From: Bryobacteraceae bacterium
GTDB taxonomy: Bacteria > Acidobacteriota > Terriglobia > Bryobacterales > Bryobacteraceae
DNA: 60,443 nucleotides
Reading direction: 5' to 3'
NCBI GenBank assembly: GCA_049686695.1
Contig: JBAVIH010000097.1
Coordinates: 1-60,443, forward strand
A program made the translations under genes and the position numbers. Each line of letters begins with the position of its first letter. Position 1 is the stretch's first letter. The notes beneath the pieces were generated by a model. It made no database searches and was not told the origin of the DNA. It saw only the letters and a list, made by a program, of their open reading frames with translations. Below are positions 2,797 through 57,909 of the stretch, piece after piece.

Positions 2797-5795
2797 CGCA
2801 GAATTCCTTTGCTGTCGAGGTAGGCTTCGCAGCGCGTCATGTAGCCCGCATCGTTGCCGTGGCCGTCGAACTGGAGGATCAGCAGCGGCGCGCCGGCGGC
2901 CTGGCGGGCGAAGTGCTTGATGTAGGACTCGGGCCCGCACTTGAAGTTGGTGATATAGACCAGGTGCAGATTGGGACGCGCGGCGGCCTGGCGCGCGGCT
3001 TCCAGTATTTTGCGGCCGGAGATCCAGAACATGTTCGAGCCGAGGCCGGCCATCGATTCGCGGCCGGTCACCAGGAAATCGAGCGGAATCACGTTGGCGC
3101 CGTAACGGTGGCGCAGCTTGCGCGGGATGTCGCAGTTCACGCCGCGGTCATAGATGTTGTAGCCGCGTCCGGCCAGCACCAGGCCGGGTTCGCCGGTTTC
3201 ATCCAGCGTGGCGATGGCGCGGCGGCCGGCTGCGATCAGCTTGTCCTGGAAGCCGCGCTGTTCGGCGAAGGCGGCATCCACCGCGCGGTCGCTCGCCCGG
3301 CGCTTGATGCCGATGCGGCCCATGGTCTCGGCCAGCGCCTTCTTGATCTGCCCAGGCCCAAGCTGGAAGTGCAGCGTCGGAATCAGGAAGCGGTGCTGGT
3401 GCGGCTCGAGGGCCGGCACGGCGCGCAGCACCCAGGGCAGGGTCTGGCTCCAGGGGCAGTAGTGCGCGGCGCCGGAGTTCTCGCCGGAATCGGCATCCAC
3501 CAGGTTGGGCAGCAGGATGTAATCGACGCCCTGGTTGATCAGCGCCTGCACGTGGCCGTGCGCCACCTGCACCGGGTAGCAGGGCTGCGCTACCGCCATT
3601 TCGATGCCATTTGCGGAAATGCGCGGGTCGGTCACCGGCGAAAGCACGGTGGGGATGCCCAACTCGGCGAAGTAGCGGCGCCAGAACGGCTGGTTGTCGA
3701 GCATCGCCATGGCTCGCGGCAGGCCCACCCGGAACGGGCCCCCGGTCGCGTTGGGAAGCGCCTCGAGCAGTTGCTCGCGGTAGGCGAACAGGTCATCGAT
3801 CACCGGCTTGCGGCCGGTGGGCGAAGGCTTGCGGAACTTGTCCGAGCATTTGTCGCCCCAGTAGCTCTTCTGCCCCTCGATGACAAACTCCTTCATGTCG
3901 CATAAGTTGGAGCAGGCCTTGCAAACGAAGTCGCGGCTCGAGAGTTCCAGCTTCTGCAAATCGTAACCGCGGAAGCGGCTCTTGCCTCCGGTGGCCTGGT
4001 GCCATTGGCGCGCGATGAGTGCCATTCCGATGGCACCCATCACCCCGTTGTACGGCGGCACGGTGATCTTCTTTTCGAGTGTGCTGGCGAAGGCGGCGGT
4101 GACGGCATCGTTGTACGCCGTGCCGCCCTGGAAGTAGATCACTTTCCCGATCTTGCGCCCGCGCACCACCCGGTTCAGATAATTGAGCGCGATCGAATAC
4201 GCCAGGCCGGCCACCAGGTTGGGCACGGTTTCGCCCTTGTGCAGCCAGCCGGTGACGTCGCGCTCCATGAAGACCGTGCAGCGCTCGCCCAGGCGGGTTG
4301 GGCTGGCGGCAGCAAGCGCCAGCTTGGCGAACTCGCCCTTGATGTTGACGCCCAGCTTCTCGGCCTGCTCCTCGAGGAACGAACCGGTGCCCGCCGCGCA
4401 AGCCTCGTTCATGGCGAAATCCACCACCACGCCGTGTTCGATCGAGATGAACTTGGAATCCTGGCCGCCGATCTCGAAAATGGTGTCCACCGGCTCGCCG
4501 CCGAGCGTGCTCGAGATGTGGATGGCGCCGGTTTTGTGCGCGGTGATTTCGTCGTTGACCGAATCGGCGCCGACGAATTCGGCGATCAGTTCGCGCCCGC
4601 TCCCGGTGGTGCCCACGCCGCGAATCTCCAGCCGGTCGCCCCACAGCTTTTCGACCTCGCTCAGGCCCTGCTGCACGGCCTCGATGGGCCGGCCGGCGGT
4701 GCGCAGATATACGTCGTGGATCACCGTGCCGTTTTCGTCGATCGCCACCACGTTGGTGGAAACCGAGCCGATATCCAGGCCCAGGTACGCCGGGATGGGT
4801 TTTCCATCGGGAGGCGGAGTGTAGACGCCCACGCGGTCGCGCAGCTGGATCACGTTTTCGGTCGCCAGTGGTTTCGAATCCTGCACCGGGACTTCGGAAT
4901 CGTGCTGGGCCAGCCGGTGTATTTCCAGAATCGAGCGCTTGCGCGTCTCTTCGGCCTCGAGAATGGCCGTGCCAATGGCGCCGCACCAGGCGTATTGTTC
5001 GGGGATGAGCAGCTCTTCCGGGCGCAGGTTGAAGGCTTCCGCCAGCGCCCTGGTGACGCCTGCGTTTTGGGAAACCGCGCCGATCAGCGCCACCGGCGCT
5101 TCCACCTTGCGGCCTTTGACGATGGAGCTCTTGAAATTGCGCGCCACCGCGTCGCACAGGCCGCGCAGAATTTCGGCCGGCTGGTAACCCTTCTGCTGGG
5201 CGTGGATCATGTCGCTCTTGGCGAACACCGAGCAGCGGCCGGCAATCCGGGCGGAGGAGCAGGCACCGCACACCAGGCCGCCTACCTCTTCCACCGAATA
5301 CTCCATGCGCAGCGCCTGCTGGTCGAGGAAGGAACCCGTGCCGGCGGCGCATTCGCCGGAGCGGTCGTAATCCTGGATGCCGGTCGCATCCAGGCGCATG
5401 TACTTCGAGCTTTCGCCGCCGATTTCGAACACCGTGCGGACCTGCGGGAAGAAGGCCGCCATCATGCGTGCGATGGCTTTGAATTCGTTCTCGAAGAACA
5501 GGCCCAGCACCTTGGCGATGGTGCGGCTGCCCGAGCCGGTGACGCGGATGCCTTCCACCCGTACCTCGGGAACGGTTTCGTAAAACTCGTCCAGCAGGTC
5601 GTAGGTGGATTGGATCGGACTGCCCGAGATGCGGCGGTAATCGGACAGCACCAGCGGGCGCCCATCGAACTCCGTCAGGCGGAATTCCGGGCGGGCGGCG
5701 CAGAGGCTCTCCAGGATCGGCCGGTCGGCGGTTTTACCCAGGGCAGCGAGCTTGAGGCTGATGGCCCCAATGTCCAGCCCGAGATTGATACCCAT
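2730..5795 (-). CDS. BadF/BadG/BcrA/BcrD-type double-ATPase CoA-substrate-specific enzyme activase fused to an HgdB-like domain
   Basis: 1021-aa ORF. Two acetate/sugar-kinase-fold ATPase repeats ('GINLGLDIGAISLK...', 'YLGLDIGSVSTNVV...') each carry a 'EIGGQDSK'/'EIGGESSK' motif and a cluster-ligand-like 'CAAGTGSFL' motif. C-terminal dehydratase-component-like region. Confidence 0.85.
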   Translation of the reverse strand: MGINLGLDIGAISLKLAALGKTADRPILESLCAARPEFRLTEFDGRPLVLSDYRRISGSPIQSTYDLLDEFYETVPEVRVEGIRVTGSGSRTIAKVLGLFFENEFKAIARMMAAFFPQVRTVFEIGGESSKYMRLDATGIQDYDRSGECAAGTGSFLDQQALRMEYSVEEVGGLVCGACSSARIAGRCSVFAKSDMIHAQQKGYQPAEILRGLCDAVARNFKSSIVKGRKVEAPVALIGAVSQNAGVTRALAEAFNLRPEELLIPEQYAWCGAIGTAILEAEETRKRSILEIHRLAQHDSEVPVQDSKPLATENVIQLRDRVGVYTPPPDGKPIPAYLGLDIGSVSTNVVAIDENGTVIHDVYLRTAGRPIEAVQQGLSEVEKLWGDRLEIRGVGTTGSGRELIAEFVGADSVNDEITAHKTGAIHISSTLGGEPVDTIFEIGGQDSKFISIEHGVVVDFAMNEACAAGTGSFLEEQAEKLGVNIKGEFAKLALAAASPTRLGERCTVFMERDVTGWLHKGETVPNLVAGLAYSIALNYLNRVVRGRKIGKVIYFQGGTAYNDAVTAAFASTLEKKITVPPYNGVMGAIGMALIARQWHQATGGKSRFRGYDLQKLELSSRDFVCKACSNLCDMKEFVIEGQKSYWGDKCSDKFRKPSPTGRKPVIDDLFAYREQLLEALPNATGGPFRVGLPRAMAMLDNQPFWRRYFAELGIPTVLSPVTDPRISANGIEMAVAQPCYPVQVAHGHVQALINQGVDYILLPNLVDADSGENSGAAHYCPWSQTLPWVLRAVPALEPHQHRFLIPTLHFQLGPGQIKKALAETMGRIGIKRRASDRAVDAAFAEQRGFQDKLIAAGRRAIATLDETGEPGLVLAGRGYNIYDRGVNCDIPRKLRHRYGANVIPLDFLVTGRESMAGLGSNMFWISGRKILEAARQAAARPNLHLVYITNFKCGPESYIKHFARQAAGAPLLILQFDGHGNDAGYMTRCEAYLDSKGILRCYQSSTPPAPPEAQAAPPAIQ

Positions 5796-5975
5796 TCTCT
5801 ACAGTGTGGAGCGGAAAGCCGCAAGTTTTCAATCAAACAGACCCGAATTGCCGAAATCGGGGCCTGAACGGGGTAGGGTGAAGGGCGGAGGGGTTGGCGC
5901 GGGTGTAGGATTTCCCGGCAAGCGCGTAGAGCTTCATCCGACAGGGGCTCTGGGCCCTGATCTTCCGTCGACCTC

Positions 5976-6278
5976 CTAGGCGGCTTCGGACCGCGGCGTG
6001 ACCGCCTTCTCGATCTCTCGTTGCCTGGCCTGCCGGGTGGTGCGTAGGTCGTACTCGAGCTGGAGACCGAGCCAGAATTCGGCAGAGGTTCCCAGGTAGC
6101 GCGCCAGGCGGAGGGCGGTATCGGCCGTAATTCCCCTGCGGCCACGCACGACATCGTTGAGGCGGGTCGCAGTGATGCCCAATGCTTTGGCGAGTTGGTT
6201 CACGCTCATGCCCAGCGGCTCGAGGACATCCTCGCGTATGGACTCGCCGGGATGGGGAACTGTTATCGGATTAGCCAT
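5976..6278 (-). CDS. higA: HigA-type antitoxin (XRE-family HTH)
   Basis: 100 aa. 'HPGE...LEPLGMSVNQLAKALGITATRLNDVVRGRRGITADTALRLARYLGTSAEFWLGLQ..YDL' is the classic HigA/VapI signature. Lies immediately downstream of higB. Confidence 0.85.
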   Translation of the reverse strand: MANPITVPHPGESIREDVLEPLGMSVNQLAKALGITATRLNDVVRGRRGITADTALRLARYLGTSAEFWLGLQLEYDLRTTRQARQREIEKAVTPRSEAA

Positions 6279-6290
6279 AACACTATGCTC

Positions 6291-6569
6291 CTAATGGTAG
6301 TCGGTGATCTCCGCGTCGAAGGCGTCGCCATCTTTCCAGTTAAAACAGATGCGGTATTGGTCGTTGACCCGTATGCTGTGTTGCCCCTTCCTGGTGCCCT
6401 TCAGGGCTTCCAAGCGATGGCCGGGAATCGCCGCCAAATCGCTCAGCGAGGTCGCCCGGTTCAGATGAATGAGCTTGCGGAGCGCGGTCTTTTCGATGGA
6501 GCGAAACTGCTTCGACGACTGCTGCAGAAACACCCTTTCCGTTTCGCCGTCTCGAAAAGATCGAATCAC
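6291..6569 (-). CDS. higB: HigB-type toxin (RelE/ParE superfamily, plasmid maintenance killer protein)
   Basis: 92 aa from GTG at 6569 ('VIRSFRDGETERVF...HRLEALKGTRKGQHSIRVNDQYRICFNWKDGDAFDAEITDYH'). Same length and motifs as the second copy at 23161. The longer ORF to 6818 has no support. Confidence 0.85.
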   Translation of the reverse strand: MIRSFRDGETERVFLQQSSKQFRSIEKTALRKLIHLNRATSLSDLAAIPGHRLEALKGTRKGQHSIRVNDQYRICFNWKDGDAFDAEITDYH

Positions 6570-6574
6570 AAATA

Positions 6575-6596
6575 TATCGTATACCGGTATACGATA
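6575..6596. promoter_or_regulatory. 22-bp perfect palindrome, candidate HigA/HigBA operator
   Basis: 'tatcgtataccggtatacgata' is its own reverse complement. It begins 6 nt upstream of the higB GTG start, in the 104-bp divergent intergenic region. Confidence 0.5.
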
Positions 6597-6672
6597 AATT
6601 GCAAGGTGGGACCGTGCGGCAGTACGACGCATTCGTTCACGCCGCTGTCGGCTATGCTGGAACTTCCTCTTC

Positions 6673-7080
6673 ATGCGCCGGTACGTCATTCTCAGCAACC
6701 CGAAGCGGGTGATCATCGCGCTCGTGCACACGGTGGCGTTTCTGCTGCTGGCCGTGTACACGGGGACGCTGCTGGTGCGGCCGTTGCACGCCGGTTCGCC
6801 CGCATCGGGGTGGATCATAATGGGCGTCTACGTTGCCATCACCTCCGCGCTGCTGGTGCTGGCCGCGGTCAGCGGCAATGCCATCGAGCGGGTCTATTTC
6901 GGGCTCTGCACGACCAGCGCCGGGTTCGGGTTGGCGCGGCAAATTCTTGGCGATGTGGGCATCCCCGCCGCGGTCTATGTGCGGGTGGCGATGCTGGCCT
7001 GCGCGGTGGCGATGGGAGCGGTGATCCTGCGCGAATACCGTAGCGGCACCGCAGCCAGCAGACGCTCACCCGCCGACTAG
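6673..7080 (+). CDS. Small integral membrane protein (about 4 TM helices), unknown function
   Basis: 135-aa ORF with four hydrophobic stretches and GC-rich third codon positions. No recognisable family. Confidence 0.45.
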   Translation: MRRYVILSNPKRVIIALVHTVAFLLLAVYTGTLLVRPLHAGSPASGWIIMGVYVAITSALLVLAAVSGNAIERVYFGLCTTSAGFGLARQILGDVGIPAAVYVRVAMLACAVAMGAVILREYRSGTAASRRSPAD

Positions 7081-7105
7081 CCAGTGTTGGAATACCAGAT
7101 TTTCG

Positions 7106-7122
7106 TGTCTGAAAATCAGACA
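7106..7122 (+). terminator. Short hairpin downstream of 6673..7080 (weak terminator candidate)
   Basis: 'tgtctga-aaa-tcagaca' forms a 7-bp stem. An overlapping alternative stem is gattttc/gaaaatc (7098..7117). No clear T-tract. Confidence 0.2.
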
Positions 7123-7207
7123 TAACCAAGCCTTCCACACAGCCTAACTCAATTCCTTTCAGCACGGCCATTCTCGTGCAGTGATCCGTTACGGAAGGAG
7201 AAGTATC

Positions 7208-7486
7208 TTGAGCGATTCATCTACTTACTGGCTGACCATTACCAACATCGGGTTGGGTGTGGTGACGCTGATTTGCTGCATCGCGGTGGCCTTCGGAGTG
7301 GTACAGGAACTGGCCGCCAAACGGAAGAAGAAGGCGGCGCTATCGGCGCTCGACAATGAGGTGTCCGACCTGGCTGCCTCGTTCGGCGACGGGCACGCAT
7401 TTCAATTCCCGCAACTCGGGCTGACCATGGCGGATGGCGGCGAGCCAACCGGCGAGAAGCAAGCCCCGAAAGAAAAAGAGCGGTAG
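7208..7486 (+). CDS. Small single-pass membrane protein, first gene of the cytochrome/NrfD operon
   Basis: TTG at 7208 is preceded by GGAAGGAG (7193-7200). TM helix 'WLTITNIGLGVVTLICCIAVAFGVV' is followed by a Lys-rich and an acidic tail. The ORF track starts at GTG 7181. Confidence 0.45.
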   Translation: MSDSSTYWLTITNIGLGVVTLICCIAVAFGVVQELAAKRKKKAALSALDNEVSDLAASFGDGHAFQFPQLGLTMADGGEPTGEKQAPKEKER

Positions 7487-7490
7487 CCGC

Positions 7491-8375
7491 ATGACCTGCC
7501 CCTTCCTCAGAGAAGCGCAAGTCAAATTCTGCCACGCTTCCAGCGTGCGGAAGCTGATTCCGCTGAGCGTGGGGCCGGCTGGCGGAGGGCGCGCGGAGGA
7601 AAAATGTTCCTCGGCCGCCTATCTCACCTGCCGGGTGTATCAATCGCACGCCATGGAAGGACCCGCGGACGGCCCATGCCCGTGCCTGGGAGAGTCGCTG
7701 ATGCAATACTGCGCGGCGGCGCCGGTGGCGAAGCTGGTGCCGTTCAGCGAATCGCTGCTTTCCCGCTGCGGCACGGACAGCCACCGTTACTGCGAACTCT
7801 ACGGTTCGATGGCGCACCCGGTGGCGGCCGGCGACGAAGTGGACGGGATCGCCATGCCGGCCGAGCTGCGCTACGCGGCCAACCATATGTGGCTGGAGGT
7901 GGGCGAGGGCGGCCAATGCCACGCCGGCATCGACGCCTTTCTGAGCCGCGCCATCGGCAACGTGGAGCGCGTTCAGTATGTGTGGCAGCAGGGGCTGCAC
8001 CGCCCGGCGGCGATTCTGACGGCGGGCGGAACCGATTGGGAAGTGGTGTTCCCCAATCCGCTGCTGCTGACTGCCTGCAACCTGTACCTGCGCGCCAACC
8101 CGGCCCGCCTCAATTCCGAACCGTACACGGCAGGATGGCTGTTCGAAGGGAACCTGGCCGAAGGCACCACCGACAACCTGATGCAAGGCGCGCCGGCCAG
8201 GGAGTGGATGGAGCACGACCTGCAGCGCATCCACGAATCTTTGCAGCGCGGCTCCGGCATGGCCGCCGACGGCGGGTTGTTCGTCGCGGGCGTGTTGAGC
8301 AGCCTGGACCGCGAATCCAGGCCGGCGCTGTTTCACGAGTTTTTCTCGCCGTTCGCGAGCGGGAAGAGGATCTGA
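7491..8375 (+). CDS. Cys-rich protein with two tandem CPxL...C modules and a C-terminal glycine-cleavage-H-like (GcvH-fold) domain
   Basis: 294 aa from ATG 7491. Duplicated module: 'CPFLREAQVKFCHASSVRKLIPLS...C...YLTCRVY' and 'CPCLGESLMQYCAAAPVAKLVPFS...C...RYCELY'. The C-terminal half, 'HMWLEVGEGGQCHAGIDAF...NP.RLNSEPYTAGWLFEG', resembles GcvH. Confidence 0.7.
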   Translation: MTCPFLREAQVKFCHASSVRKLIPLSVGPAGGGRAEEKCSSAAYLTCRVYQSHAMEGPADGPCPCLGESLMQYCAAAPVAKLVPFSESLLSRCGTDSHRYCELYGSMAHPVAAGDEVDGIAMPAELRYAANHMWLEVGEGGQCHAGIDAFLSRAIGNVERVQYVWQQGLHRPAAILTAGGTDWEVVFPNPLLLTACNLYLRANPARLNSEPYTAGWLFEGNLAEGTTDNLMQGAPAREWMEHDLQRIHESLQRGSGMAADGGLFVAGVLSSLDRESRPALFHEFFSPFASGKRI

Positions 8376-8957
8376 ATGATCGGCGGCAAAATCGCGTTTG
8401 CGTCGGGAATGCTGGTAGCGCTCGCTGGCGGCTGGCTGGCATTCCCGCACATCCTCTATCAAACCCGGCTGCAGCCGGTCGATTTCAGCCACAAGATACA
8501 CGCCGATAAGGCCGGCGCCAAGTGCGAGGATTGCCACTCGTTCCGCGATGACGGAACCTATGCCGGCATCCCCACGCTGGATAAGTGCTCGGGTTGTCAC
8601 ACCGCCGCCATGGGCGCCACGGCGGAGGAGAAGAATTTCATCGACCGGTACGTGACGCCCAATCGCGAGCCGCAATGGCTGAGCTACGCGGGGCAACCGG
8701 AGAATGTCTACTTTTCGCACGTCTCGCACGTCAAGCTGGGCCACGTGAAATGCGAGCAGTGCCACGGCAACGAAGGCGGCACTGGCGGCCTGCGGCCGTA
8801 CCAGCGGGACCCCATCAGCGGCTACTCGCGCGACATCTGGGGGCGGCCAGTGAACCGGATTGCGCTGCGGACCGAAGGCGGAATGAAGATGGACGATTGC
8901 GTGAACTGCCACCGCCGGCAGGGCCTGGAATACAGTTGCCTGGGGTGTCACAAATGA
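8376..8957 (+). CDS. Membrane-anchored pentaheme cytochrome c (ActA/QrcA-like)
   Basis: 193 aa. N-terminal TM helix. Five CxxCH motifs (CEDCH, CSGCH, CEQCH, CVNCH, CLGCH). The start codon directly follows the upstream stop. Confidence 0.9.
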   Translation: MIGGKIAFASGMLVALAGGWLAFPHILYQTRLQPVDFSHKIHADKAGAKCEDCHSFRDDGTYAGIPTLDKCSGCHTAAMGATAEEKNFIDRYVTPNREPQWLSYAGQPENVYFSHVSHVKLGHVKCEQCHGNEGGTGGLRPYQRDPISGYSRDIWGRPVNRIALRTEGGMKMDDCVNCHRRQGLEYSCLGCHK

Positions 8958-10738
8958 CCACGACACGGCGTAATCTCCTGAAATTCGTGGGCGGCGGAGC
9001 GGCGGGCGCGCTGCTGACGCCGGCGCCGTGGCGGCTGATCACGGACACCGCGCTGTGGAGCGAAAACTGGCCGGGAATTCCGCGGCCGGCGCGCGGCGAG
9101 ATTCGCGCCCGCTTCACCCACTGCACGCTGTGCCCGGCCGGATGCGCGGTGCGCGCGCGATGTGTCAACGGGCAGCCGGTCTCGCTCACCGGCGTGAAAC
9201 CGCACCCCATCAGCCATGGCGCGCTGTGCCCGTGGGGGATCGCGGGACATCATCTGCCTTACCATCCGGCGCGCGTGCGGCAGGGGCCGGTGAAGGAAGC
9301 TCTGGCGGCGGTGGCGCGGGCGATTTCGCAGCGAGGCGCCGGCGAGCGTGTCGCGATGCTCGATTTGCGCCCAGGCCGCACGGTGTCCTGGACCTATCGC
9401 CGCTGCATGGCCGCGATGGATGGCGGCCTCTACCTGACGCCGCGCCAACCCGATTACGCGATCGACCTGGCCGCGGCCCAAACCGTGGTGAGCTTCGGAG
9501 CGCCGCTCTTCGATGGGTGGGGCACGCCGGGCAATGTGTTCGCCGCACGCGCCAATTTCCGCCTGGTCCAAATCGAACCGGTGGAAACGCGGACGGCGGC
9601 GCTGGCGGATGTGTGGCTGCCCATCCGGCCGGGCGCCGAAACGGCAATTGCGGCTGCGCTCGCCGGAGAGACCACAATCGCGGAAGCCGCGCGCGCGACC
9701 GGCGTGGAAGAGCAAGCCCTCGGCGCGGTGAAAGAAGCTATCGGGAGTGGCGCGGCGGTAGCGCTGGCCGCGGACCCTGCCTCGCCGCTGATGAGTCTAA
9801 ACGCGAAATTCAAAGCGCTGGGGCACACCGTGGTGGCGCGGCGCGAAGCGCCGGTGCCCGACGCGTGGAAGAAAGCCGCGCCGGTTGGCGAAATGGCCGC
9901 CGCGCCGGATGGGGCCATTCGCGTCCTGCTGATCGACGAATCGCTGCCCGGCGGGTACGTGCCGTGGCGGGACATTCAACCGAAGCTGGCGCCGGATGCG
10001 GTGGTGGTGGTGTTCGGTTCCTCGAGCGAGGGCTACGCGCGGCACGCCCAGTACGTGCTGCCGGCGCCGGTGTATCCGGAAGCGGCCGAAGACGTTGGGC
10101 CGGCCATCGATACGGTGGCCGCGGTGTTTCGGATTGCCGCGCCGCTGATTGCGCCGGCCGTCCCGGTGGTGAATCCGGGCGAGCTGTTGGCGCGGATCGC
10201 CGGCCTGCCGGCATCCGATCCGCTGCGCGAGCGGGCCGACGCTATTCACAAAGCCGGTCACGGGTCGCTGCTTGGCTATGCGGACAGAAAATCGACGCTC
10301 GTGAAGGACGTTGCGGCGGACGATTTCTGGAAGACTCTCAACCAGGGCGGGTGCTGGATGGACGCGACGGGCAAGAAAGCGGCGCCGGGAAAGCTCGCGT
10401 TCCGCGCTTCCGGCGAGCAGCCGCATGACGATCTGCCGCTGGCCGTGGTGGCGGCGGAGGCGAGGCGAGGCGGTCTCGAATCGCCGCTGATGTCGAAACT
10501 CGAGCGCGAGTCGAACCTGCGCTTGTCCGCCAACGGGCTGGCGCTTTCGCCCGCGGATGCCCGCGCGAACGGGATCGAAAATGGCGGCCGTTGCCTGCTC
10601 GAAACGGCTTGCGGACGCTTGAGCGTGGTGGCCACCATCGATGCGGGCGTGCCGTCCGGCGTGGTGGAAGTCTCGGGCGGACCGCGGATGGCCGATTTGT
10701 GCAGCGGGAGCCAGCGTGCCAGGGTGGTGCGGATATGA
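8954..10738 (+). CDS. TAT-exported molybdopterin-oxidoreductase-family subunit, unusually short (ActB1/QrcB/PsrA-like)
   Basis: 594 aa from ATG 8954, with an ATGA overlap on the cytochrome stop. Twin-arginine signal 'TTRRNLLKFVGGGAAGA'. N-terminal Fe-S motif 'HCTLCPAGCAVRARC'. C-terminal Molydop_binding-like barrel ('LSPADARANGIENGGRCLLETACGRLSVVATIDAGVPSGVVEV'). Confidence 0.85.
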   Translation: MTTTRRNLLKFVGGGAAGALLTPAPWRLITDTALWSENWPGIPRPARGEIRARFTHCTLCPAGCAVRARCVNGQPVSLTGVKPHPISHGALCPWGIAGHHLPYHPARVRQGPVKEALAAVARAISQRGAGERVAMLDLRPGRTVSWTYRRCMAAMDGGLYLTPRQPDYAIDLAAAQTVVSFGAPLFDGWGTPGNVFAARANFRLVQIEPVETRTAALADVWLPIRPGAETAIAAALAGETTIAEAARATGVEEQALGAVKEAIGSGAAVALAADPASPLMSLNAKFKALGHTVVARREAPVPDAWKKAAPVGEMAAAPDGAIRVLLIDESLPGGYVPWRDIQPKLAPDAVVVVFGSSSEGYARHAQYVLPAPVYPEAAEDVGPAIDTVAAVFRIAAPLIAPAVPVVNPGELLARIAGLPASDPLRERADAIHKAGHGSLLGYADRKSTLVKDVAADDFWKTLNQGGCWMDATGKKAAPGKLAFRASGEQPHDDLPLAVVAAEARRGGLESPLMSKLERESNLRLSANGLALSPADARANGIENGGRCLLETACGRLSVVATIDAGVPSGVVEVSGGPRMADLCSGSQRARVVRI

Positions 10739-11493
10739 CCGCGCCAAAGCTCTACGGCATGTCGATCGATATCGACAAGTGCAACGGCTGCGGCGCCTGC
10801 ATGATGGCTTGCGCGGTCGAAAACAATATCCCGCCGGCGCCGGAATCCGCCAACGATCGCAAGGGCATCACCTGGATTCGAGTCTACAAAGTGGATAACC
10901 ACCGCGCCTATCCGGAACGGCGCTCGGCGTTTGTGCCGGTGCTCTGCCAGCAGTGCGGCCACGACACGCCTTGCGTCCACGTCTGCCCGCAGCAGGCGGT
11001 GGATGTGGATCCGGCCACCGGCATCGTGGGCCAGATGCCGGAGCGCTGCCTGGGCTGCCGTTATTGCATGGTGGCTTGCCCGTATCACGCGCGCTATTTC
11101 AACTGGTGGGACCCGGCGTGGCCGGCCGGCATGGAGAAAACGCTCAACCCCGACGTCGCGCCGCGCATGCGGGGCGTGGTCGAGAAATGTAATTTCTGCC
11201 ACGGCCGCTGGCATGCCGCGCAGCAGAAAGCGGCGGCGGCCGGTCAACGCGAAATCGATGCGGCCGATTACGTCCCCGCCTGCGTGGAAGCCTGCCCCAC
11301 CGGCGCCCTCCGCTTCGGCGATCTCAACGATTCGTCGAGCGAGGTCGCGCAGGACGCTCGACGCCCGGAGAGCTTCCGCCTGCTCGAAAAGATCGGCACC
11401 GAGCCGAAGATTCATTACCGCTCCCGCCGCGACTGGGTGCGCGAGATCGCGAGCGCTCCGCGGCCCGAAGGAAAGGATGGCATCCGTGGATAA
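10735..11493 (+). CDS. 4Fe-4S ferredoxin-type subunit (HybA/PsrB/ActB2/QrcC-like)
   Basis: 252 aa, with an ATGA overlap on the upstream gene. Motifs 'CNGCGACMMAC', 'CQQCGHDTPCVHVCP', 'CLGCRYCMVACPY' and 'CNFC...CVEACPTGA'. Confidence 0.9.
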   Translation: MTAPKLYGMSIDIDKCNGCGACMMACAVENNIPPAPESANDRKGITWIRVYKVDNHRAYPERRSAFVPVLCQQCGHDTPCVHVCPQQAVDVDPATGIVGQMPERCLGCRYCMVACPYHARYFNWWDPAWPAGMEKTLNPDVAPRMRGVVEKCNFCHGRWHAAQQKAAAAGQREIDAADYVPACVEACPTGALRFGDLNDSSSEVAQDARRPESFRLLEKIGTEPKIHYRSRRDWVREIASAPRPEGKDGIRG

Positions 11494-12760
11494 GGAACTC
11501 ATCCCGCGCGGCCTGCGGCGCTCCTCCACCGGACGATTCCTGCTGTGGATTCTTCCCTGGGCGGCCTTGCTCGGGTTCGGCCTGTACTGCGCCGGGTTGT
11601 GCCTGGTGAAGGGCCTCAACCAGACCAACATGGACAACCGCTTCGCTTTCGGCCTCTGGATCTTCCTCGATCTGACCGTGATCGCGCTGGGCGCGGGCGC
11701 GTTCTTCACCGGGTTCCTGCTCTACATTTTGAAAATCGGCGAGATGCGCTCGGTAATCAACAGCGCCGTGGTGATCGGCCTGGTGTGCTACAGCGGCGCG
11801 ATGGCCGCGCTGGCGGTGGATGTCGGCCAGCCGCTGCGATCGTGGTTCACCTTCTGGTACCCCAACGTGCATTCCATGCTGACGGAAGTCACCTTCTGCA
11901 TCAGTTGCTACCTCACCGTGCTGCTGATCGAATACCTGCCCATCGTGCTGCGCAACCGGAAGCTGCACGAGGTGCCGTCGTTCCTGGTGTTCGAATACGA
12001 ATTGCATAAGGTGACCTACGTGCTGGCCGGCGTGGGCACGTTCCTTTCGTTCTTCCATCAGGGCTCGCTGGGCGGATTGTATGGCGTGCTGCGCGGCCGT
12101 CCGTTCGCGTTCCGGGAAGGGTTGGCGGTGTGGCCCACCACATTCTTCCTGTTTATTCTGTCGGCGGCGGCGGTGGGGCCGAGCTTCATCCTGCTGACCA
12201 CCTGGGCGGTCGAGAAGCTTTCGCGCAAGCGGCTGGTGAGGCCCGAGGTGTTCCGGCGGCTGGCGGGCATTTCCGGCCTGCTGTTGGCGGTGTACGTGCT
12301 GGCCAAGGCGTTGGACACGCTGGTCTGGATCAACCGCACCTCGCCGGGGACCGGTTTTGAGGCTTGGCAGTATTACAGTTGGAAACCGTTCGGCACCTGG
12401 ATCCTGTTCGCCGAAATCGCGCTCTTCGGTCTGCTGCCCGCGCTGGTGATGCTGACCCCGCGGCTGCGCGCGCACACCGGCTGGCTGGTAGCGGCGGCGG
12501 CGATGGCCTGCTGCGGCGTGACGCTCAACCGTTTCGTGATGACGGTGCAGACGCTGGCGCTGCCCACACTGTCGTTCGATCCTTACCTTTCGTACTTTCC
12601 GAGCTGGCAGGAAATCGGGACTTTCCTGGCGGTGGTGGCGTATGGAGTTCTGGTGTATTCATTTTCGTTCCGCTACTTCAATCTGTTCCCGGAAGAGCGC
12701 GAACTGAAACTCGAAGCGGCGGCGCAGGAAGAAGAAACCGCGCTGGCCGGGAGGTATTAA
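11477..12760 (+). CDS. NrfD/HybB/PsrC-family integral membrane quinone-interacting subunit
   Basis: 427 aa and polytopic. 'NMDNRFAFGLWIFLDLTVIALGAGAFFTG' is typical of the NrfD/HybB family. Overlaps the upstream gene by 17 nt; an alternative GTG start lies at 11486. Confidence 0.9.
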   Translation: MASVDKELIPRGLRRSSTGRFLLWILPWAALLGFGLYCAGLCLVKGLNQTNMDNRFAFGLWIFLDLTVIALGAGAFFTGFLLYILKIGEMRSVINSAVVIGLVCYSGAMAALAVDVGQPLRSWFTFWYPNVHSMLTEVTFCISCYLTVLLIEYLPIVLRNRKLHEVPSFLVFEYELHKVTYVLAGVGTFLSFFHQGSLGGLYGVLRGRPFAFREGLAVWPTTFFLFILSAAAVGPSFILLTTWAVEKLSRKRLVRPEVFRRLAGISGLLLAVYVLAKALDTLVWINRTSPGTGFEAWQYYSWKPFGTWILFAEIALFGLLPALVMLTPRLRAHTGWLVAAAAMACCGVTLNRFVMTVQTLALPTLSFDPYLSYFPSWQEIGTFLAVVAYGVLVYSFSFRYFNLFPEERELKLEAAAQEEETALAGRY

Positions 12761-13594
12761 GTGTTGCCGTGGAACTATGGGTTCGACTGGAATGCCGGTC
12801 ATATCATCTTCCTGGGCGCTTTCTACGCCGTGCTGGCGGTGGTGGCGTCGACGGTGGCCTGGGCGGGCGTCCGCTCAGGGCGCGCGCTGCGCTCGGGCCA
12901 GGTGGATGCGATCCGCTGGCATTCCGATTTTGCCAGCCTGCCTTGCAGCGAACGGGTGTGCCGCCACGTCCTGACCGGTGAGTTCCAGCATCGGCAGTGC
13001 CAGCGCGCGTTCTGCTGCGGGGGATGCGAAGCGCACGCCAGGCTAATCGAGCGGCACCCGCTGCCACGAGTGGAAGAGCCGCAGGAAGAGGTATGCGGAA
13101 TGACGTTTCCGCTGGACCGCTTCTACCATCGCGGCCACACCTGGGCGCGGCTGGATCGGGATGGAACCGTGCTGGTGGGGCTGGACGAGTTAGGCAAGCG
13201 CCTGCTGGGCCAGCCGGATGCGCTGCGGTTGCCAAGACCCGGCCGCCGCGTCCACGCCAACGGCGCCGCGTTTCGGGTGCGCCGCCGCAACGCCAAGGTA
13301 CGCGTGATGTGCCCGGTGGACGGCAAAGTGGTGGAAACCGGGAGCGCGGAGCGCGGCTGGTACCTGCGGATCAAGCCGGACAGCAACAATGTGCAGGCGT
13401 TTCAGCACCTGTTGCGCGGCGCTGAAATCAAACCCTGGATCCAGCACGAAATGGAGCGCCTGCAACTGGCGCTCACCGCCGAAGGCGCAGCCCCAGCGCT
13501 GGCCGATGGCGGCGTCCCGGTCAACGACATCGCCGCCGCCTACCCCGCCGCCGATTGGGACGCGGTCTGCGGCGATATGTTCCTCGAAGGGTAA
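12761..13594 (+). CDS. Membrane-anchored Cys-rich protein with C-terminal GcvH-like domain (second GcvH-fold gene of the operon)
   Basis: 277 aa from GTG 12761, directly after the nrfD-like stop. TM helix 'HIIFLGAFYAVLAVVASTVAW'. Cys cluster 'CSERVCRH...CQRAFCCGGCEAH'. GcvH-like 'FYHRGHTWARLDRDGTVLVGLDELGKRLLG...PVDGKVVE...GWYLRIKP'. Confidence 0.7.
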   Translation: MLPWNYGFDWNAGHIIFLGAFYAVLAVVASTVAWAGVRSGRALRSGQVDAIRWHSDFASLPCSERVCRHVLTGEFQHRQCQRAFCCGGCEAHARLIERHPLPRVEEPQEEVCGMTFPLDRFYHRGHTWARLDRDGTVLVGLDELGKRLLGQPDALRLPRPGRRVHANGAAFRVRRRNAKVRVMCPVDGKVVETGSAERGWYLRIKPDSNNVQAFQHLLRGAEIKPWIQHEMERLQLALTAEGAAPALADGGVPVNDIAAAYPAADWDAVCGDMFLEG

Positions 13595-13656
13595 GACCGC
13601 CATCTGGTGCTGGCGTGAATTACCCGACCTACGCGTTCACCCATTAGCCGCGTGGG

Positions 13657-13694
13657 GCGGACGCCCTCGTCCGCGCGCGACCCCCAGGTCGCGC
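13657..13694. terminator. Two tandem GC-rich hairpins between convergent genes (possible bidirectional terminator / REP-like)
   Basis: 'gcggacg-ccct-cgtccgc' is immediately followed by 'gcgcgac-ccccag-gtcgcgc', then 'tctt'. They sit between the convergent gene ends at 13594 and 13706. Confidence 0.35.
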
Positions 13695-13705
13695 TCTTGC
13701 TCGTC

Positions 13706-14275
13706 CTACGCGAAGTCCCCGCCCAGCTCGGCCAGTTGCGCCCCGGTGAGCGGCTGTTCGGCCCGGAAGCTCGGGTGGTCAATCACAATCCGTGCGCCGC
13801 TCGTCCAGCGCACCCGCTGCTCCGGCGTCAGCGGGAACTTGATGTATTGCACCGAGCTCAGCCGGTCGGTCGAAATCTGCCGCGTGTCGAACCTGGCGCG
13901 CGTGGATGGCAGATCCGCCACCGCGATCCAGACATGCTCTTCGAAACCGCGCAGCTCGCGCAGCCGGACATCGCGCTCGCGCGGCGATTCGTATTCGATC
14001 AGCAGGCAGGCGGAGAGATCTCCCGGGCCGGGAATCAGCTCGTTGTAGGTTTCCACCTCGTGCCGGATTGCCTCGGGAAAGACCATCCGCTCAATCCGCA
14101 CCATTTCCTGGATCTGGTAGCGCACGGTCTCGCGGTTTTCGAAAAGAAACGTCAGGTGCCCGCCCACCAAAACGCGCCGGCGGTCCTTGAGCGCCATCAT
14201 TTTCGGCCGCAATTCGGGGCGTTCCAACTCGTATTCGGCGATGTTGAGGATTTCGGAAACGTCAATCGGCTTCAT
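13706..14275 (-). CDS. DUF3501-like protein
   Basis: 189 aa from ATG 14275, with an ATGA overlap on the upstream stop. I recall the sequence type ('...VGGHLTFLFENRETVRYQIQEMVRIE...LLIEYE...') as the DUF3501 family that accompanies rubrerythrin and HdrD-like genes. The call is by memory only. Confidence 0.6.
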   Translation of the reverse strand: MKPIDVSEILNIAEYELERPELRPKMMALKDRRRVLVGGHLTFLFENRETVRYQIQEMVRIERMVFPEAIRHEVETYNELIPGPGDLSACLLIEYESPRERDVRLRELRGFEEHVWIAVADLPSTRARFDTRQISTDRLSSVQYIKFPLTPEQRVRWTSGARIVIDHPSFRAEQPLTGAQLAELGGDFA

Positions 14276-15591
14276 TCCGGTTTTGCCTCCACGGGATTGG
14301 GAAAGCCATCGGCGCGATAGGCGCGCTCGAGCACCTGGATGGGATGCACCGGCCGCCGCCCGAGCGCCTGTTGGATCTGGATGGAGGCCAACGGGCAATC
14401 GCTGGCCCAGACGTCGGCCCCGGCCTCGCTGAAGGCGTCGAAAGCCTTCTTGCCCGCCAGCAGCGAAAGCGGGAAGAACTCGCGCTTCATGGCCCAGGTG
14501 CCGTCGTGCCCGGAGCACTGCTCGATCAACGTGATTTTGGTTCCCGGAATCAGCCGCATCATATCGCGCGAGCGGTACCCGACGTTCTGCGCGCGCAAGT
14601 GGCACGGCAGATGATAGGCGATGCTGCCCGGCGAGGAGCGGAAATCGCGGTTGAATTTGCCCTGCTGCTTGAGCTCGAAGAGGAATTCGCAGATATCGCG
14701 CGCCGCCGCACCCACCTCGCGCGCCTCCGGCGTGCCCACCAGTTCGGCATATTCCTTGCGCAGCATGTACGAGCAGGTGGGATCGATGGCGACCACCTTC
14801 TTGCCCGCGCGCACCTCGGGCAGCAGCGCCGCCACGTTTTGCTCCGCCATCTTCCTGGCCAGCTCGAGATCGCCGGACTCGATGGCCGGCATGCCGCAGC
14901 AGTTCTGCCGCGGAACGCCCAGCGACACGCCGTTTTTCGAAAACACGGCGATGGCGGCCTTGCCGATTTCGGGGTCGTTATAATTCACCGAGCAGGTATA
15001 GAAGAGCACCGCCTGGCGAGGATCGCCCGCCGGCGCAGGCTGCTTGCGGTACCAGTCTTCGAAAGTCTCGCCGTGAAACTCGGGCAGGATCTTTTCGCGG
15101 TGGATGCCGAGCACTTTTTCCAAACCCACCCGCAACAGCGGCTGGCGATTGGCCCAGTTCGACAGGCCCGGCGTTATCCCGGCCATCCGGCCGATCCTCT
15201 CCGGCTGCGCCAGCAACCGGTTCCGCAGCGGGATGCCACGCTCCTTGCGGCGCACCGCGTTGGCGCGGATCATCAGGCGCGGAAAATCCAGTTGAAACTC
15301 GTGCTTGTCATCCGGCGTGTAGGGACACTTCACGTAGCAGATCTTGCATTGGAAGCAGAGGTCGATGACGCGATCGGTTTCGTCGCGCTGGAGCTGGCGG
15401 ACGTCGCCCGTGCGCTCGACCGCCTGGAACAGCGCGGGAAAGCTGGAGCAGAGATTGAAACACAGGCGGCAGCCGCTGCAGATTTCGAACACACGGTCGA
15501 TTTCCTGCTGCAAGGCGGGCTTGTCCCAGTAAACGGGCTGGTTGGGGTTGTAGCACAGGCCGGCGGTCGGCGTGCCTTTAATGACGGACAT
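14272..15591 (-). CDS. (Fe-S)-binding protein, HdrD/GlpC-like (two 4Fe-4S motifs plus CCG domains)
   Basis: 439 aa from ATG 15591, with GGAG upstream. Motifs 'CSGCRLCFNLC' and 'CFQCKICYVKCPY'. C-terminal CCG-type motifs ('NCCGMP', 'CHLRAQ', 'QCSGHDG'). Confidence 0.85.
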   Translation of the reverse strand: MSVIKGTPTAGLCYNPNQPVYWDKPALQQEIDRVFEICSGCRLCFNLCSSFPALFQAVERTGDVRQLQRDETDRVIDLCFQCKICYVKCPYTPDDKHEFQLDFPRLMIRANAVRRKERGIPLRNRLLAQPERIGRMAGITPGLSNWANRQPLLRVGLEKVLGIHREKILPEFHGETFEDWYRKQPAPAGDPRQAVLFYTCSVNYNDPEIGKAAIAVFSKNGVSLGVPRQNCCGMPAIESGDLELARKMAEQNVAALLPEVRAGKKVVAIDPTCSYMLRKEYAELVGTPEAREVGAAARDICEFLFELKQQGKFNRDFRSSPGSIAYHLPCHLRAQNVGYRSRDMMRLIPGTKITLIEQCSGHDGTWAMKREFFPLSLLAGKKAFDAFSEAGADVWASDCPLASIQIQQALGRRPVHPIQVLERAYRADGFPNPVEAKPE

Positions 15592-15712
15592 GTATGACTC
15601 CAGGCCGTCGCGGACCGCTTGCGCGCGGCCGCGGCGGCACGGTATTTCTTCATCGTCTGGCCGCAACTGCCAGACAGCGGTTGGCCACAACGGGCAAACC
15701 GCCGGATCGGCG

Positions 15713-16132
15713 CTAGGCGATCGACTTCAGCCCCTGCGCGAAGCGCCCGGCGTGCGATTTCTCGGCCTTGGCCAAGGTCTCGAACCAGTCGGCGATCTCG
15801 GCGAAGCCCTCTTCGCGGGCGGCTTTGGCCATGCCCGGATACATGTCGGTGTATTCATGGGTCTCGCCGGCGATGGCCGCCTCGAGGTTGGTGGCGGTAT
15901 CGCCGATGGGAAGGTCCGTGGCGGGGTCGCCGACCGGCTTCAAATAATCCAGGTGGCCGTGCGCGTGGCCGGTTTCGCCTTCCGCCGTGTCGCGGAACAG
16001 CCCCGCGATATCCGGGTAGCCCTCCACATCGGCCTGCTTGGCGAAATACAGGTAGCGGCGGTTGGCCTGCGATTCGCCGGCGAACGCCGCCTTCAGATTC
16101 TCGTGAGTCTTGGTGCCTTTCAATGTAGCCAT
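15713..16132 (-). CDS. Rubrerythrin-family diiron protein (no rubredoxin domain)
   Basis: 139 aa. '[33 protein letters not shown]' and '[11 protein letters not shown]...[14 protein letters not shown]...AEKSHAGRF' give the ExxH pairs of the ferritin-like four-helix bundle. Confidence 0.9.
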
Positions 16133-16224
16133 AGTTGTGCTTCCTTCGTTCGAAATGAATCGCGCGCGGGTTCTGCTGAAAACCTTGCGCCCCCGCACCC
16201 ATCAGGTTATCTCAAACCCCAGCC

Positions 16225-16248
16225 GGTGGGGCATGCTTTTAGCTTGCC
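16225..16248. repeat. REP-like unit 'ggtggggcatgcttttagcttgcc' (single copy)
   Basis: Same motif family as 17646, 50204/50247 and 55065/55109. Intergenic, between the rubrerythrin gene and the FMN-reductase gene. Confidence 0.6.
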
Positions 16249-16296
16249 AACGCCCGCTTGCGGTGAGTGTTTCAGAGCATCCGGCCGCGCCGTACA

Positions 16297-16851
16297 CTAC
16301 TTCAGCTTGCGCGTCCACGCCGCCAGCGCGGCCAGCAGCTTCCGGATCGACTCCCCGGTATGCTCGTCGGTCAGGTTCCCCGCCGCGTCGAACTTCTGCG
16401 CCGCGCCGCTAATCATGACTTCCGGCTTGTTCAACGGGTGCATATCGAGGAAAACGAAGCACTGCCGCAAATGGTATTGCGCTCGCGCCGTCCCAAACGG
16501 GCCCGGCGACGCGCCCATCACCGCGACCGGTTTCCCCTGCCAGCAACTGTCGCCATAGGGCCGCGAGCCCCAGTCAATCGCGTTTTTCAGCACGCCCGGA
16601 ATCGAGTAGTTAAACTCGGGCGTAACGAACAGAACCGCGTCCGCCGCGCGCACCCGCTCCTTCAATTCGGCTACGCACGCCGGCGTCGTGGTCTCGTCAT
16701 CCTGGTTGTAAAGGGGAATTTGGTCGAGATCGAAAATCTCCACCTTCACTCCCTCCGGCGCCAGCGCCTGTGCCGCGCGCAGCGCGGCGCGGTTCAACGA
16801 GCCCTTGCGCAGGCTCCCCGCAATTCCCAAAACCGTCACTGTAGATTCCAT
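16297..16851 (-). CDS. NAD(P)H-dependent FMN reductase (flavodoxin-like fold, ChrR/YieF-type)
   Basis: 184 aa from ATG 16851. Motifs 'VLGIAGSLRKGSLNRA' and 'FVTPEFNYSIPGVLKNAIDW'. Confidence 0.85.
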   Translation of the reverse strand: MESTVTVLGIAGSLRKGSLNRAALRAAQALAPEGVKVEIFDLDQIPLYNQDDETTTPACVAELKERVRAADAVLFVTPEFNYSIPGVLKNAIDWGSRPYGDSCWQGKPVAVMGASPGPFGTARAQYHLRQCFVFLDMHPLNKPEVMISGAAQKFDAAGNLTDEHTGESIRKLLAALAAWTRKLK

Positions 16852-16863
16852 CACTTCAGTAGG

Positions 16864-17406
16864 ATGCGCGCTATCATCGAAAAGATGCGGGCGCGGGCGT
16901 TCTGGAAGGCGGTGACTGTGGACCATAGCGACTTCTTAGATTCGCTGATCGCACTCTTGGCCGAGGGCGGTTTCCGCTATTGCGTGATCGGCGGGCAAGC
17001 CGTCAATGCGTATGTCGAGCCGCTGGTCAGTCTCGACCTGGACCTCGTGGTGGCGGTGGATCAAATCGCCGGGGCTGAGACCATGCTGCGCGAACGCTTC
17101 AAGGTCGAGCGCTTCCCGCACAGCCTGAATATCGAATCCGCCGGCTCCGACCTCCGCGTGCAGGTCCAGACCGATCCGCGGTACTTTGCGTTCCTCGACC
17201 GCGCCGAATCTCACGAAGTGCTCGGCGTGACGCTTCCCGTGGCCGCGCTGGAGGATGTTTTGCAGGGCAAGATCTGGGCAACTTCCGATCCTCAACGGCG
17301 CCCCAGCAAGCGGCGCAAAGATCTGCTGGACATCGAGCGCATTCTGGAAAGTCAGCCGAGCTTGCGGGCGCTGGTCCCGGCCGCCATCCTCGACCGCTTG
17401 GCGTGA
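16864..17406 (+). CDS. Nucleotidyltransferase-fold protein (orphan, MNT/AbiEii-like)
   Basis: About 180 aa. 'CVIGGQAVNAYVEPLVSLDLDLVV' fits the GG-x(n)-D-x-D minimal nucleotidyltransferase motif. Alternative start at 16885. No partner gene seen. Confidence 0.55.
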   Translation: MRAIIEKMRARAFWKAVTVDHSDFLDSLIALLAEGGFRYCVIGGQAVNAYVEPLVSLDLDLVVAVDQIAGAETMLRERFKVERFPHSLNIESAGSDLRVQVQTDPRYFAFLDRAESHEVLGVTLPVAALEDVLQGKIWATSDPQRRPSKRRKDLLDIERILESQPSLRALVPAAILDRLA

Positions 17407-28603: not shown

Positions 28604-28618
28604 ATTATAAGCCATAAT
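28604..28618. promoter_or_regulatory. Candidate LysR box (T-N11-A dyad ATTAT-N5-ATAAT) in an AT-rich divergent promoter region
   Basis: 'attataagccataat' lies 9 nt upstream of the lysR start. An extended -10-like 'tggtatact' (28657-28665) faces the operon, with a weak -35. Confidence 0.3.
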
Positions 28619-28700
28619 GATAGTTTCAAATATCAATACCATTTTATCTGAAAGTCTGGTATACTCCTGCCTTCCCTCTCTGAAGCGGGATTTTTCCCTT

Positions 28701-30168: not shown

Positions 30169-30191
30169 GCGAGGCCTGAGCGAGACTCGAT

Positions 30192-37264: not shown

Positions 37265-37267
37265 GGC

Positions 37268-53811: not shown

Positions 53812-53816
53812 TCCGC

Positions 53817-57908: not shown

Positions 57909-57909
57909 C

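Follow-up and report, generated by a model that had tools for sequence, protein, structure and literature searches.

The stretch of DNA analysed here, which we call the window at its full length of 60,443 nucleotides (nt), is positions 1 to 60,443 of contig JBAVIH010000097.1 (assembly GCA_049686695.1) from a Bryobacteraceae bacterium. Our subject is a set of seven genes, g1 to g7, at 7208–13594 on its forward strand (+), in which the four genes of a Qrc-type quinone-interacting core (g3 to g6, so assigned by homology) are bracketed by three genes for conserved partner proteins, g1 and g2 upstream and g7 downstream. The genes are tightly packed on the same strand, almost without intergenic space. 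g1 (7208–7486; 92 amino acids (aa)) has a TTG start 7 nt after a GGAGA ribosome-binding site, and a gap of 4 nt separates its stop at 7486 from the ATG of g2 (7491–8375; 294 aa), whose TGA ends at 8375 and is directly followed by the ATG of g3 (8376–8957; 193 aa). ATGA overlaps with the preceding gene open both g4 (8954–10738; 594 aa), at 8954, and g5 (10735–11493; 252 aa), at 10735. g6 (11477–12760; 427 aa) overlaps g5 by 17 nt (11477–11493), and the GTG of g7 (12761–13594; 277 aa) comes directly after the g6 TAA, which ends at 12760. An earlier note, made from the letters alone, had described a seven-gene unit with zero-gap or overlapping junctions, and every junction held when it was re-read. 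The product classes proposed there (in order, a small transmembrane protein, a GcvH-like protein, a pentaheme cytochrome c, a MopB-family protein exported by twin-arginine translocation (Tat), a 4Fe-4S protein, an NrfD-type protein and a transmembrane GcvH-like protein) are likewise borne out by Pfam, NCBIfam and the hydrophobic segments.

A sigma-54-type −24/−12 promoter element, CGGCCATTCTCGTGCA, lies at 7164–7179 (+), 29 nt upstream of the g1 start. No sigma-70-like promoter was found within 6900–13900, and terminator-like sites in the same interval are no more frequent than in shuffled sequence. Since the genes abut or overlap, the sigma-54 element stands before g1, and there is neither an internal sigma-70-like promoter nor an excess of terminators, g1 to g7 form one transcription unit, a sigma-54-dependent operon.

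For all four core proteins the best NCBIfam match is a Qrc model. g3 scores 206 bits against QrcA over the full length of the model (cut-off 180); it has an N-terminal hydrophobic segment (residues 6–24) and five CxxCH motifs, and five are kept in 74 of 75 homologues. The QrcD model gives g6 565.6 bits over positions 1–407 of 408 (cut-off 570), followed by HmcC with 125 bits, and Pfam NrfD gives 54 bits; orthologues in a Bacteroidota metagenome-assembled genome (MAG; locus L054, 583 bits) and in Paludibaculum fermentans (L032, 576 bits) exceed the QrcD cut-off. g5 scores 353.4 bits against QrcC (positions 1–234 of 239, cut-off 400) and 163 bits against the second model, DsrO; Pfam finds multiple Fer4 families in it, and it is without a signal peptide of its own. 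g4 carries an RRNLLK Tat motif (TAT signal model 15.4, cut-off 16.7) and matches Pfam Molybdop_Fe4S4 with 30.1 bits and Molydop_binding with 25.1 bits, the latter below its cut-off. The Molybdopterin domain PF00384 is not detected in g4 by Pfam, which fits a cofactor-less protein. Its best NCBIfam model is QrcB at 151.7 bits (cut-off 440), and against the PDB only weak N-terminal matches are seen, to PsrA and FdhA. To judge by these profiles, g4 is a short QrcB-like MopB-family protein with an N-terminal Fe4S4 domain and a degenerate pterin-binding part. Relatives score 222–300 bits for QrcB and 318–366 bits for QrcC, against the same cut-offs. Because Qrc models fit all four proteins best, with the cut-off exceeded by g3 for QrcA and by relatives for QrcD, homology makes the core Qrc-type and not alternative complex III (ACIII). 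The earlier note had called the quartet ACIII- or Qrc-like. Its Qrc half stands on the best-matching models; its ACIII half does not, as the MopB-like and Fe-S proteins have separate genes and there is a single NrfD gene.

Immediately upstream of the core, g2 encodes a soluble protein rich in cysteine (Cys). Its match to Pfam GCV_H is 24.0 bits and that of g7 is 28.3 bits (gathering cut-off 22.2), and the GcvH equivalog TIGR00527 gives 28.9 and 25.7 bits for the two proteins (cut-off 115.85). The g2 family profile finds E. coli GcvH and solved GcvH structures with E=1e-8. An AlphaFold2 model made with 25 close homologues was poor (predicted local distance difference test (pLDDT) 50, N-terminus <35) and was superseded by one made with an 85-sequence alignment (pLDDT 91.4, predicted template-modelling (TM) score 0.85). 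With the latter, Foldseek matched only H proteins (TM 0.83–0.85), all over the H-fold, with no match to the N-terminal or C-terminal parts of g2. TM-scores to solved H proteins, S. pyogenes GcvH-L among them, are 0.81–0.85. Of the H-protein core, the motifs 'NHxW', 'GxD' and 'PYxxGW' are kept, but the lipoyl lysine (Lys) is absent: that of E. coli aligns with G180 of g2, a glycine kept in at least 90% of close relatives, the position in g7 is N175, where relatives have N, D, G or E, and neither the g2 family (85 sequences) nor the g7 family has an invariant Lys. Hence the GcvH fold that the earlier note had assigned by eye survives profile and structure searches, and its placing of Gly (g2) and Asn (g7) at the lipoyl position stands on proper alignment. 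The same is true of the Cys clusters it saw in both proteins, and of its division into one soluble and one membrane-anchored protein. In g2, which has no hydrophobic segment, the Cys cluster is an N-terminal pair of repeated four-Cys modules (C3/C14/C39/C47 and C63/C74/C93/C101) of about 45 residues, CP(F/Y)L-x-E-x5-C...C-x7-C. All eight module Cys are invariant in the 85 sequences, which span 30–91% identity; C143 and C196 are not conserved across the wider family. This N-terminal Cys domain has no match in Pfam or the PDB. At the other end, g2 has a helical C-terminal extension with the motif 'AADGG'.

In g7, a single hydrophobic segment (residues 10–37) is followed by RSGRALR, then by a Cys motif, C67-x-H69...C80...C86-x2-C89(-x2-H92), of which C67-R-H69...C80...C86-R-x-C89 is conserved across phyla and which finds only a sub-threshold ATPase-cat_bd match in searches of Pfam and the PDB, and then by a shortened H-fold domain and a C-terminal extension that carries 'LADGG'. 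Invariant residues in or near the helix are P3, W4, Y6, G7, F8, W10, F17 and G19-Y22. The alignments make g2 and g7 distant paralogues over fold and extension (hhalign probability 98.2%, E=5e-14; BLASTP 23% identity over 173 aa, E=7e-9). g1, which has no Pfam or NCBIfam match, likewise consists of one hydrophobic segment (residues 7–38), followed by KRKKK, and a C-terminus, 'LGLTMADGGE', in which 'LG(L/V/I)TMADGGE' is almost invariant in an alignment of 75 loci; in 25 diverse homologues W8, N13, L16, G17, G71, T73, D76, G77 and G78 are invariant. Both g1 and g7 are predicted to be single-pass proteins with the N-terminus outside and the C-terminus inside, since basic residues follow both helices (positive-inside rule). 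This predicted topology would place the H-folds, the Cys sites and the ADGG motifs all on the cytoplasmic face.

An [L/M]ADGG-type motif is thus common to g1 (MADGG), g2 (AADGG) and g7 (LADGG); its D-G-G is invariant in close relatives of g2 and g7, as is A248 in g7. Comparison of g1 with g2 and g7 by hhalign found the ADGG motif only, at a probability of 9–14%, and as the similarity stays at motif level, homology of g1 to the C-terminal extension of g2 and g7 is not established. Together, g1 and g2 have the same layout as g7. An ADGG likeness in the sigma-54 regulator of a divergent locus, L083 ('ELADGGTLFLDE'), is the usual Walker-B region of such ATPases, and we therefore take it as a coincidence. 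Longer representatives of the family, considered as fusion proteins that might hint at function, turned out to be gene-call fusions or frameshifts, one of them with a NUDIX-like N-terminus.

The three partners are conserved together with the core. With the g2 profile, 1963 representatives at 50% clustering were recovered, most of them full length and 198 at E<1e-30, and a scan with a 14-sequence alignment, one genome per species, gave at least 522 loci. Among the best 80 of these, on which all synteny counts are based, g1 to g7 are complete and colinear in 62, 14 are cut by contig ends and consistent with g1 to g7 as far as the contig reaches, one has no detectable g1 and three have g1–g2 only. 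Flanking genes are unrelated between loci, and the same seven-gene order in 62 of 80 loci is not chance. The survey of co-occurrence suggested in the earlier note hence finds both H-fold genes and the small membrane gene co-conserved with the cytochrome c, MopB-like, Fe-S and NrfD genes in at least five phyla. Identity to the window has a median of 70% for QrcD, 68% for QrcC, 51% for QrcA, 46% for g7, 44% for g2 and 42% for g1, with QrcB the most divergent subunit at 35%. The nearest genome loci (89% identity) are in Bryobacterales MAGs from peat bog. Hosts of the best 80 loci are Acidobacteriota (Bryobacterales, Terriglobales with Ca. Sulfotelmatobacter, Holophagales and Thermoanaerobaculia), Bacteroidota, Ignavibacteriales, Kryptoniota and Eisenbacteria, with P. 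fermentans as the isolate, and most host organisms of the operon are not known sulfate reducers or sulfur respirers. Two contigs labelled Ca. Limnocylindrales (L028) and Synechococcus sp. (L051) carry genes 38–59% identical to acidobacterial or Bacteroidota types and are probably mis-binned rather than from true hosts. In an Ignavibacteriales MAG (L060) a second, shorter g7-like copy lies directly after g7 (15715–16452). A 2021 survey reported QrcD only in Deltaproteobacteria, and ACIII in the same phyla as the present operon.

Walking outward from a divergent g2 representative reached the far edge of the family, where the partners occur in other arrangements (one locus, L086, is of the ordinary seven-gene type). 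In L083 (4314–8409, −) and L085 (5348–7787, −), g1–g2 and a kinase cassette described below stand beside an HmcBC-type module without a MopB-like subunit. The module comprises an HmcB-like Tat Fe-S protein, whose gene is frameshifted in the assembly, an HmcC-like NrfD protein (502 bits, cut-off 550) and, encoded after the latter, a g7-like protein of 236 residues with a transmembrane helix, a GcvH fold and 'TMADGGE' but no Cys motif. By its gene name in the hmc operon, HmcD belongs to the related Hmc complex as a subunit, and residues 3–37 of the L083 g7-like protein match the NCBIfam HmcD model at 32.6 bits (E=6e-8, cut-off 34); L085 has the same layout and N-terminus. The L083 protein also gives sub-threshold Pfam matches to NQRA_N (E=0.01) and RnfC_N (E=0.036). 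A sigma-54-like element precedes this Hmc-type variant operon as well. The module in L083 is followed by a Tat-signal protein of the NAD-epimerase family, which could be a periplasmic partner. g1–g2 pairs also occur without qrc genes, in L046 (531–1825) and, beside the kinase cassette, in L061 (8672–9963), L068 (about 5343–6600) and L087 (8646–9948); in L061 a gcvT gene lies just upstream of the pair on the other strand. From the divergent loci it appears that g7 travels with the NrfD gene, and g1–g2 with the promoter and regulator side.

The promoter is conserved too. A YGGY-N8-YGCH element is found upstream of g1 in 57 of 77 loci, compared with 17.7% of random 200-nt windows, and in Bryobacterales the −24/−12 element lies at about −44 relative to g1. 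In 39 of the 80 loci a three-gene cassette adjoins the operon, always on the other strand (for example, L009 15009–18558; L061 9979–13632). It encodes a histidine kinase with a HAMP domain, a peptidase of the M54 family (archaemetzincin-like) and a sigma-54 response regulator, the last being 66–87% identical across phyla. A metallopeptidase within a two-component operon is odd. In the window and its closest relatives (L003–L006) the cassette is not present within 9 kb, and clustering of flanking open reading frames (ORFs) revealed no other co-conserved neighbour. A 2023 study of a sulfate-reducing Bryobacteraceae MAG, CO124, reports qrcABCD transcribed under anoxia and discusses only these four genes; beside them, its supplementary table lists the partners only as 'Glycine cleavage H-protein' or 'hypothetical'. 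In the published supplementary data, CO124 genes 48–54 are g7, qrcD, qrcC, qrcB, qrcA, g2 and g1. In its metatranscriptome, transcripts of g1 and g2 are confined to the four samples that contain qrc transcripts, at low counts (g2: log2 fold change −4.7, p = 0.003).

Homology shows the four core products to make up a complex of Qrc type, in which the pentaheme cytochrome QrcA, a cofactor-poor QrcB-like scaffold and QrcC face the periplasm, seated on a heme-less QrcD that reacts with menaquinone. To go by the Qrc of Desulfovibrio, such a complex would move electrons between periplasmic cytochromes and the menaquinone pool, with quinone protons taken up or released on the cytoplasmic side. Our tentative reading of g1, g2 and g7 is that they are cytoplasmic-side accessory subunits of QrcD/HmcC-type quinone modules, with a structural, gating or reporting role; we regard it as plausible rather than probable. 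In g7, an HmcD-like anchor of one helix would then be joined to a metal-binding motif and an H-fold without lipoate, and g1 and g2 would be a split version of the same design, g1 supplying the anchor helix and g2 the Cys-rich H-fold protein. The helices of g1 and g7 could pack against QrcD through their conserved polar and aromatic residues, and the helix-plus-[L/M]ADGG element that all three proteins share could link them to one another or to one site in common. Neither Pfam nor NCBIfam detects a heme-b membrane subunit or a CCG-domain protein in g1 to g7, and the CCG proteins elsewhere in the window (14272–15690 and 35930–37264) belong to other gene clusters. Without heme b, electrons could not cross to the cytoplasmic Cys sites, so that g1, g2 and g7 are unlikely to be on the main electron path; the Cys4 sites, whether Fe-S or Zn, would more probably serve to stabilise or gate the quinone/proton module on its cytoplasmic side, or to report on that side.

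The accessory-subunit reading draws on the synteny, the abutting genes, the single-pass helices with invariant residues, the Hmc-type variant, the common ADGG design and the co-expression in CO124. Several observations weigh against it. The N-terminus of the g7 in the window, like g1, is without a match to the HmcD model. In L061, L068 and L087 the g1–g2 pair and cassette have no adjacent NrfD module, and L046 is a lone second pair in a MAG that also holds a full operon. The g7 orthologue of CO124 has zero reads in eight of eight samples, where overall counts are very low, and the Qrc of Desulfovibrio has been purified, reconstituted and complemented as four subunits only. More doubtful, though conceivable, is the specific form in which the ADGG proteins are an unrecognised cytoplasmic module of the QrcD/HmcC branch, whose metal or redox site gates the proton path or reports to the sigma-54 two-component system. 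If true, the cytoplasm would be coupled in a new way to a quinone module that faces the periplasm, and the H-protein fold would have a new use other than as a carrier.

The stand-alone g1–g2 and kinase units keep a regulatory role alive. g1 and g2, perhaps with g7, might sense redox state or metal and pass the signal to the neighbouring histidine kinase and sigma-54 regulator, thereby controlling the operon; for example, g1 might hold g2 at the membrane, where a Cys4 centre of g2 that is labile to oxygen or to redox change could modulate the HAMP kinase. We think this rather unlikely, even though the cassette, with a regulator 66–87% identical across phyla, adjoins the operon in about half of the loci, g1–g2 stay by it in L061, L068 and L087, the operon has a sigma-54 promoter, the CO124 transcripts occur only under anoxia and eight invariant Cys would suit a sensor. 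That g2 abuts qrcA and g7 abuts qrcD is rather what stoichiometric co-production would lead one to expect, and g7 always follows the NrfD gene, with an HmcD-like anchor in the Hmc-type variant. The window and L003–L006 are without a nearby cassette, and Pfam and profile searches detected no known sensor domain in the three proteins. Unlikely, too, is a role in maturation, in which g1, g2 and g7 would act close to the membrane as chaperones or as donors of Fe-S clusters, keep QrcB and QrcC back until cluster insertion and export, and be absent from the mature complex. Private chaperones encoded in the operon (TorD, DmsD, NapD, NapF) are common for MopB-family enzymes, and as QrcB has a Tat signal and the multi-cluster QrcC has none, the pair must be assembled in the cytoplasm, where the Cys-rich accessory proteins would be at hand. 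However, these show no similarity to the TorD, DmsD, NapD or NapF families, known Tat chaperones are soluble whereas two of the three partners have conserved transmembrane helices, and Desulfovibrio Qrc matures without them. The trio also occurs beside an HmcBC-type module that has no MopB-like subunit to be matured, and stand-alone g1–g2 pairs exist.

The H-protein fold is a swinging-arm carrier fold, conserved Cys are present and some hosts are sulfur-metabolising Acidobacteriota, all of which would suit proteins that carry sulfur, or a prosthetic group other than lipoate, and feed (for instance as a relay of persulfide or thiol like LbpA, DsrC or TusA) the quinone pool from a cytoplasmic substrate. 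Such a role is very unlikely, because the hairpin tip has no conserved Lys or Cys but Gly or Asn. The Cys residues outside the modules of g2, C143 and C196, vary, the clustering of flanking ORFs found no co-conserved ligase or sulfurtransferase gene, neither heme b nor another electron route leads from the cytoplasm to the P-side quinone site, and sulfur respiration is not known in most hosts. Automatic annotation, finally, calls the H-fold proteins 'glycine cleavage system H (lipoate-binding) protein'. There is next to no chance that they are ordinary H proteins or accidental neighbours of qrc: the missing lipoyl Lys, the extra domains and transmembrane helix in proteins of 277–294 aa, the lack of gcvT and gcvP in the operon and the synteny with qrc across phyla despite unrelated flanks refute it.

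Qrc has hitherto been treated as a four-subunit complex of sulfate-reducing Desulfobacterota. Here, a Qrc-type operon is found in at least about 500 loci of species-level genomes of Acidobacteriota, Bacteroidota, Ignavibacteriales and others from soil, peat and sediment, where it almost always includes three conserved partners, of which we found no description in the searchable literature (GcvH-like or glycine cleavage H proteins with NrfD, ACIII or QrcD). If the partners are subunits or sensors, models of energy coupling and regulation in NrfD-type quinone modules would change, and the H-fold would gain a lipoate-free role. The operon, being transcribed under anoxia, also bears on the anaerobic respiration of peatland Acidobacteria, and P. 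fermentans (L032) is one cultured carrier.

Elsewhere in the window, a same-strand run at 28617–42908 (+) encodes MvhD/FlpD-like, MetF (methylenetetrahydrofolate reductase), CCG (HdrD-like) and MetV (DUF5981) proteins, two glutamate-synthase-domain proteins and a flavo-iron-sulfur protein of 1498 aa that is an HdrA/NfnB-like fusion. The run resembles an Hdr-linked, possibly electron-bifurcating, methylenetetrahydrofolate reductase cluster, unusual for Bryobacteraceae. Convergent with the operon, 13706–16926 (−) holds genes for DUF3501, rubrerythrin, a CCG/Fer4 Fe-S oxidoreductase and an FMN reductase, a set that points to oxidative stress or redox functions. Upstream, the operon is immediately preceded by a pair of genes for a HigB-like toxin and a helix-turn-helix antitoxin (5976–6818, −). 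A 1229-aa protein (17469–21158, +) fuses a 2-oxoacid dehydrogenase acyltransferase (E2 catalytic) domain to 2-oxoglutarate dehydrogenase E1, the OdhA/Kgd-type E2-E1 architecture known from Actinobacteria. At 2730–5795 (−) is a 1021-aa activase-like ATPase with a double BcrAD_BadFG and DUF2229, and 50307–56454 contains three PQQ_2/BamB-like beta-propeller genes close together, followed by two Fer4 proteins (57291–58908).

Among known systems, ACIII (ActABCDEF) resembles the present operon in its pentaheme cytochrome c, cofactor-less MopB-like module, Fe-S module and NrfD-type subunit. However, the MopB-like and Fe-S modules are fused in ActB and separate here (g4 and g5), and ACIII has two NrfD-type subunits (ActC and ActF) together with ActD and ActE, whereas here only g6 matches NrfD, scoring as QrcD and not as an Act protein, and the g1 to g7 unit contains no ActD-like or monoheme ActE-like gene. 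GcvH, LbpA and GcvH-L have the same fold as g2 and g7, but g2 and g7 differ from these carriers in having no lipoyl Lys, in their make-up (N-terminal Cys modules or a transmembrane anchor and a C-terminal ADGG extension within 277–294 aa) and in an operon that is without gcvT, gcvP or sHdr genes. In respiratory membrane complexes, the peripheral cytoplasmic subunits NqrA and RnfC have an N-terminal barrel-sandwich hybrid domain, a lipoyl-like fold that carries no cofactor; the hits of the L083 protein to these domains are below threshold, no other Nqr or Rnf domains are present and the partner complexes differ. QrcABCD, the menaquinone reductase of Desulfovibrio/Nitratidesulfovibrio vulgaris, has the same four-part core in the same gene order (a multiheme cytochrome c anchored in the membrane, a MopB-like protein that is poor in cofactors and exported by Tat, an Fe-S protein and an NrfD-type subunit without heme). 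It is a cytochrome c3:menaquinone oxidoreductase, and its QrcD takes quinone protons from the cytoplasm. Judged against the canonical set in the literature, there are seven genes here instead of four, with three extra conserved proteins predicted to face the cytoplasm. QrcB is much shorter and more divergent, QrcB and QrcC fall below the model cut-offs, control is by sigma-54 and a two-component system, and the hosts are Acidobacteriota, Bacteroidota, Ignavibacteriales and others. Hmc/Nhc and DsrMKJOP combine an NrfD-type quinone module with a small single-helix subunit (HmcD) and cytoplasm-facing Cys-rich proteins, a plan that the present operon would share. To reach the cytoplasm, Hmc and Dsr rely on a membrane subunit with heme b, HmcE or DsrM, and on HmcF or DsrK, which have a CCG domain, whereas the cytoplasmic domains of the operon described here are predicted to be H-protein folds with new Cys modules.

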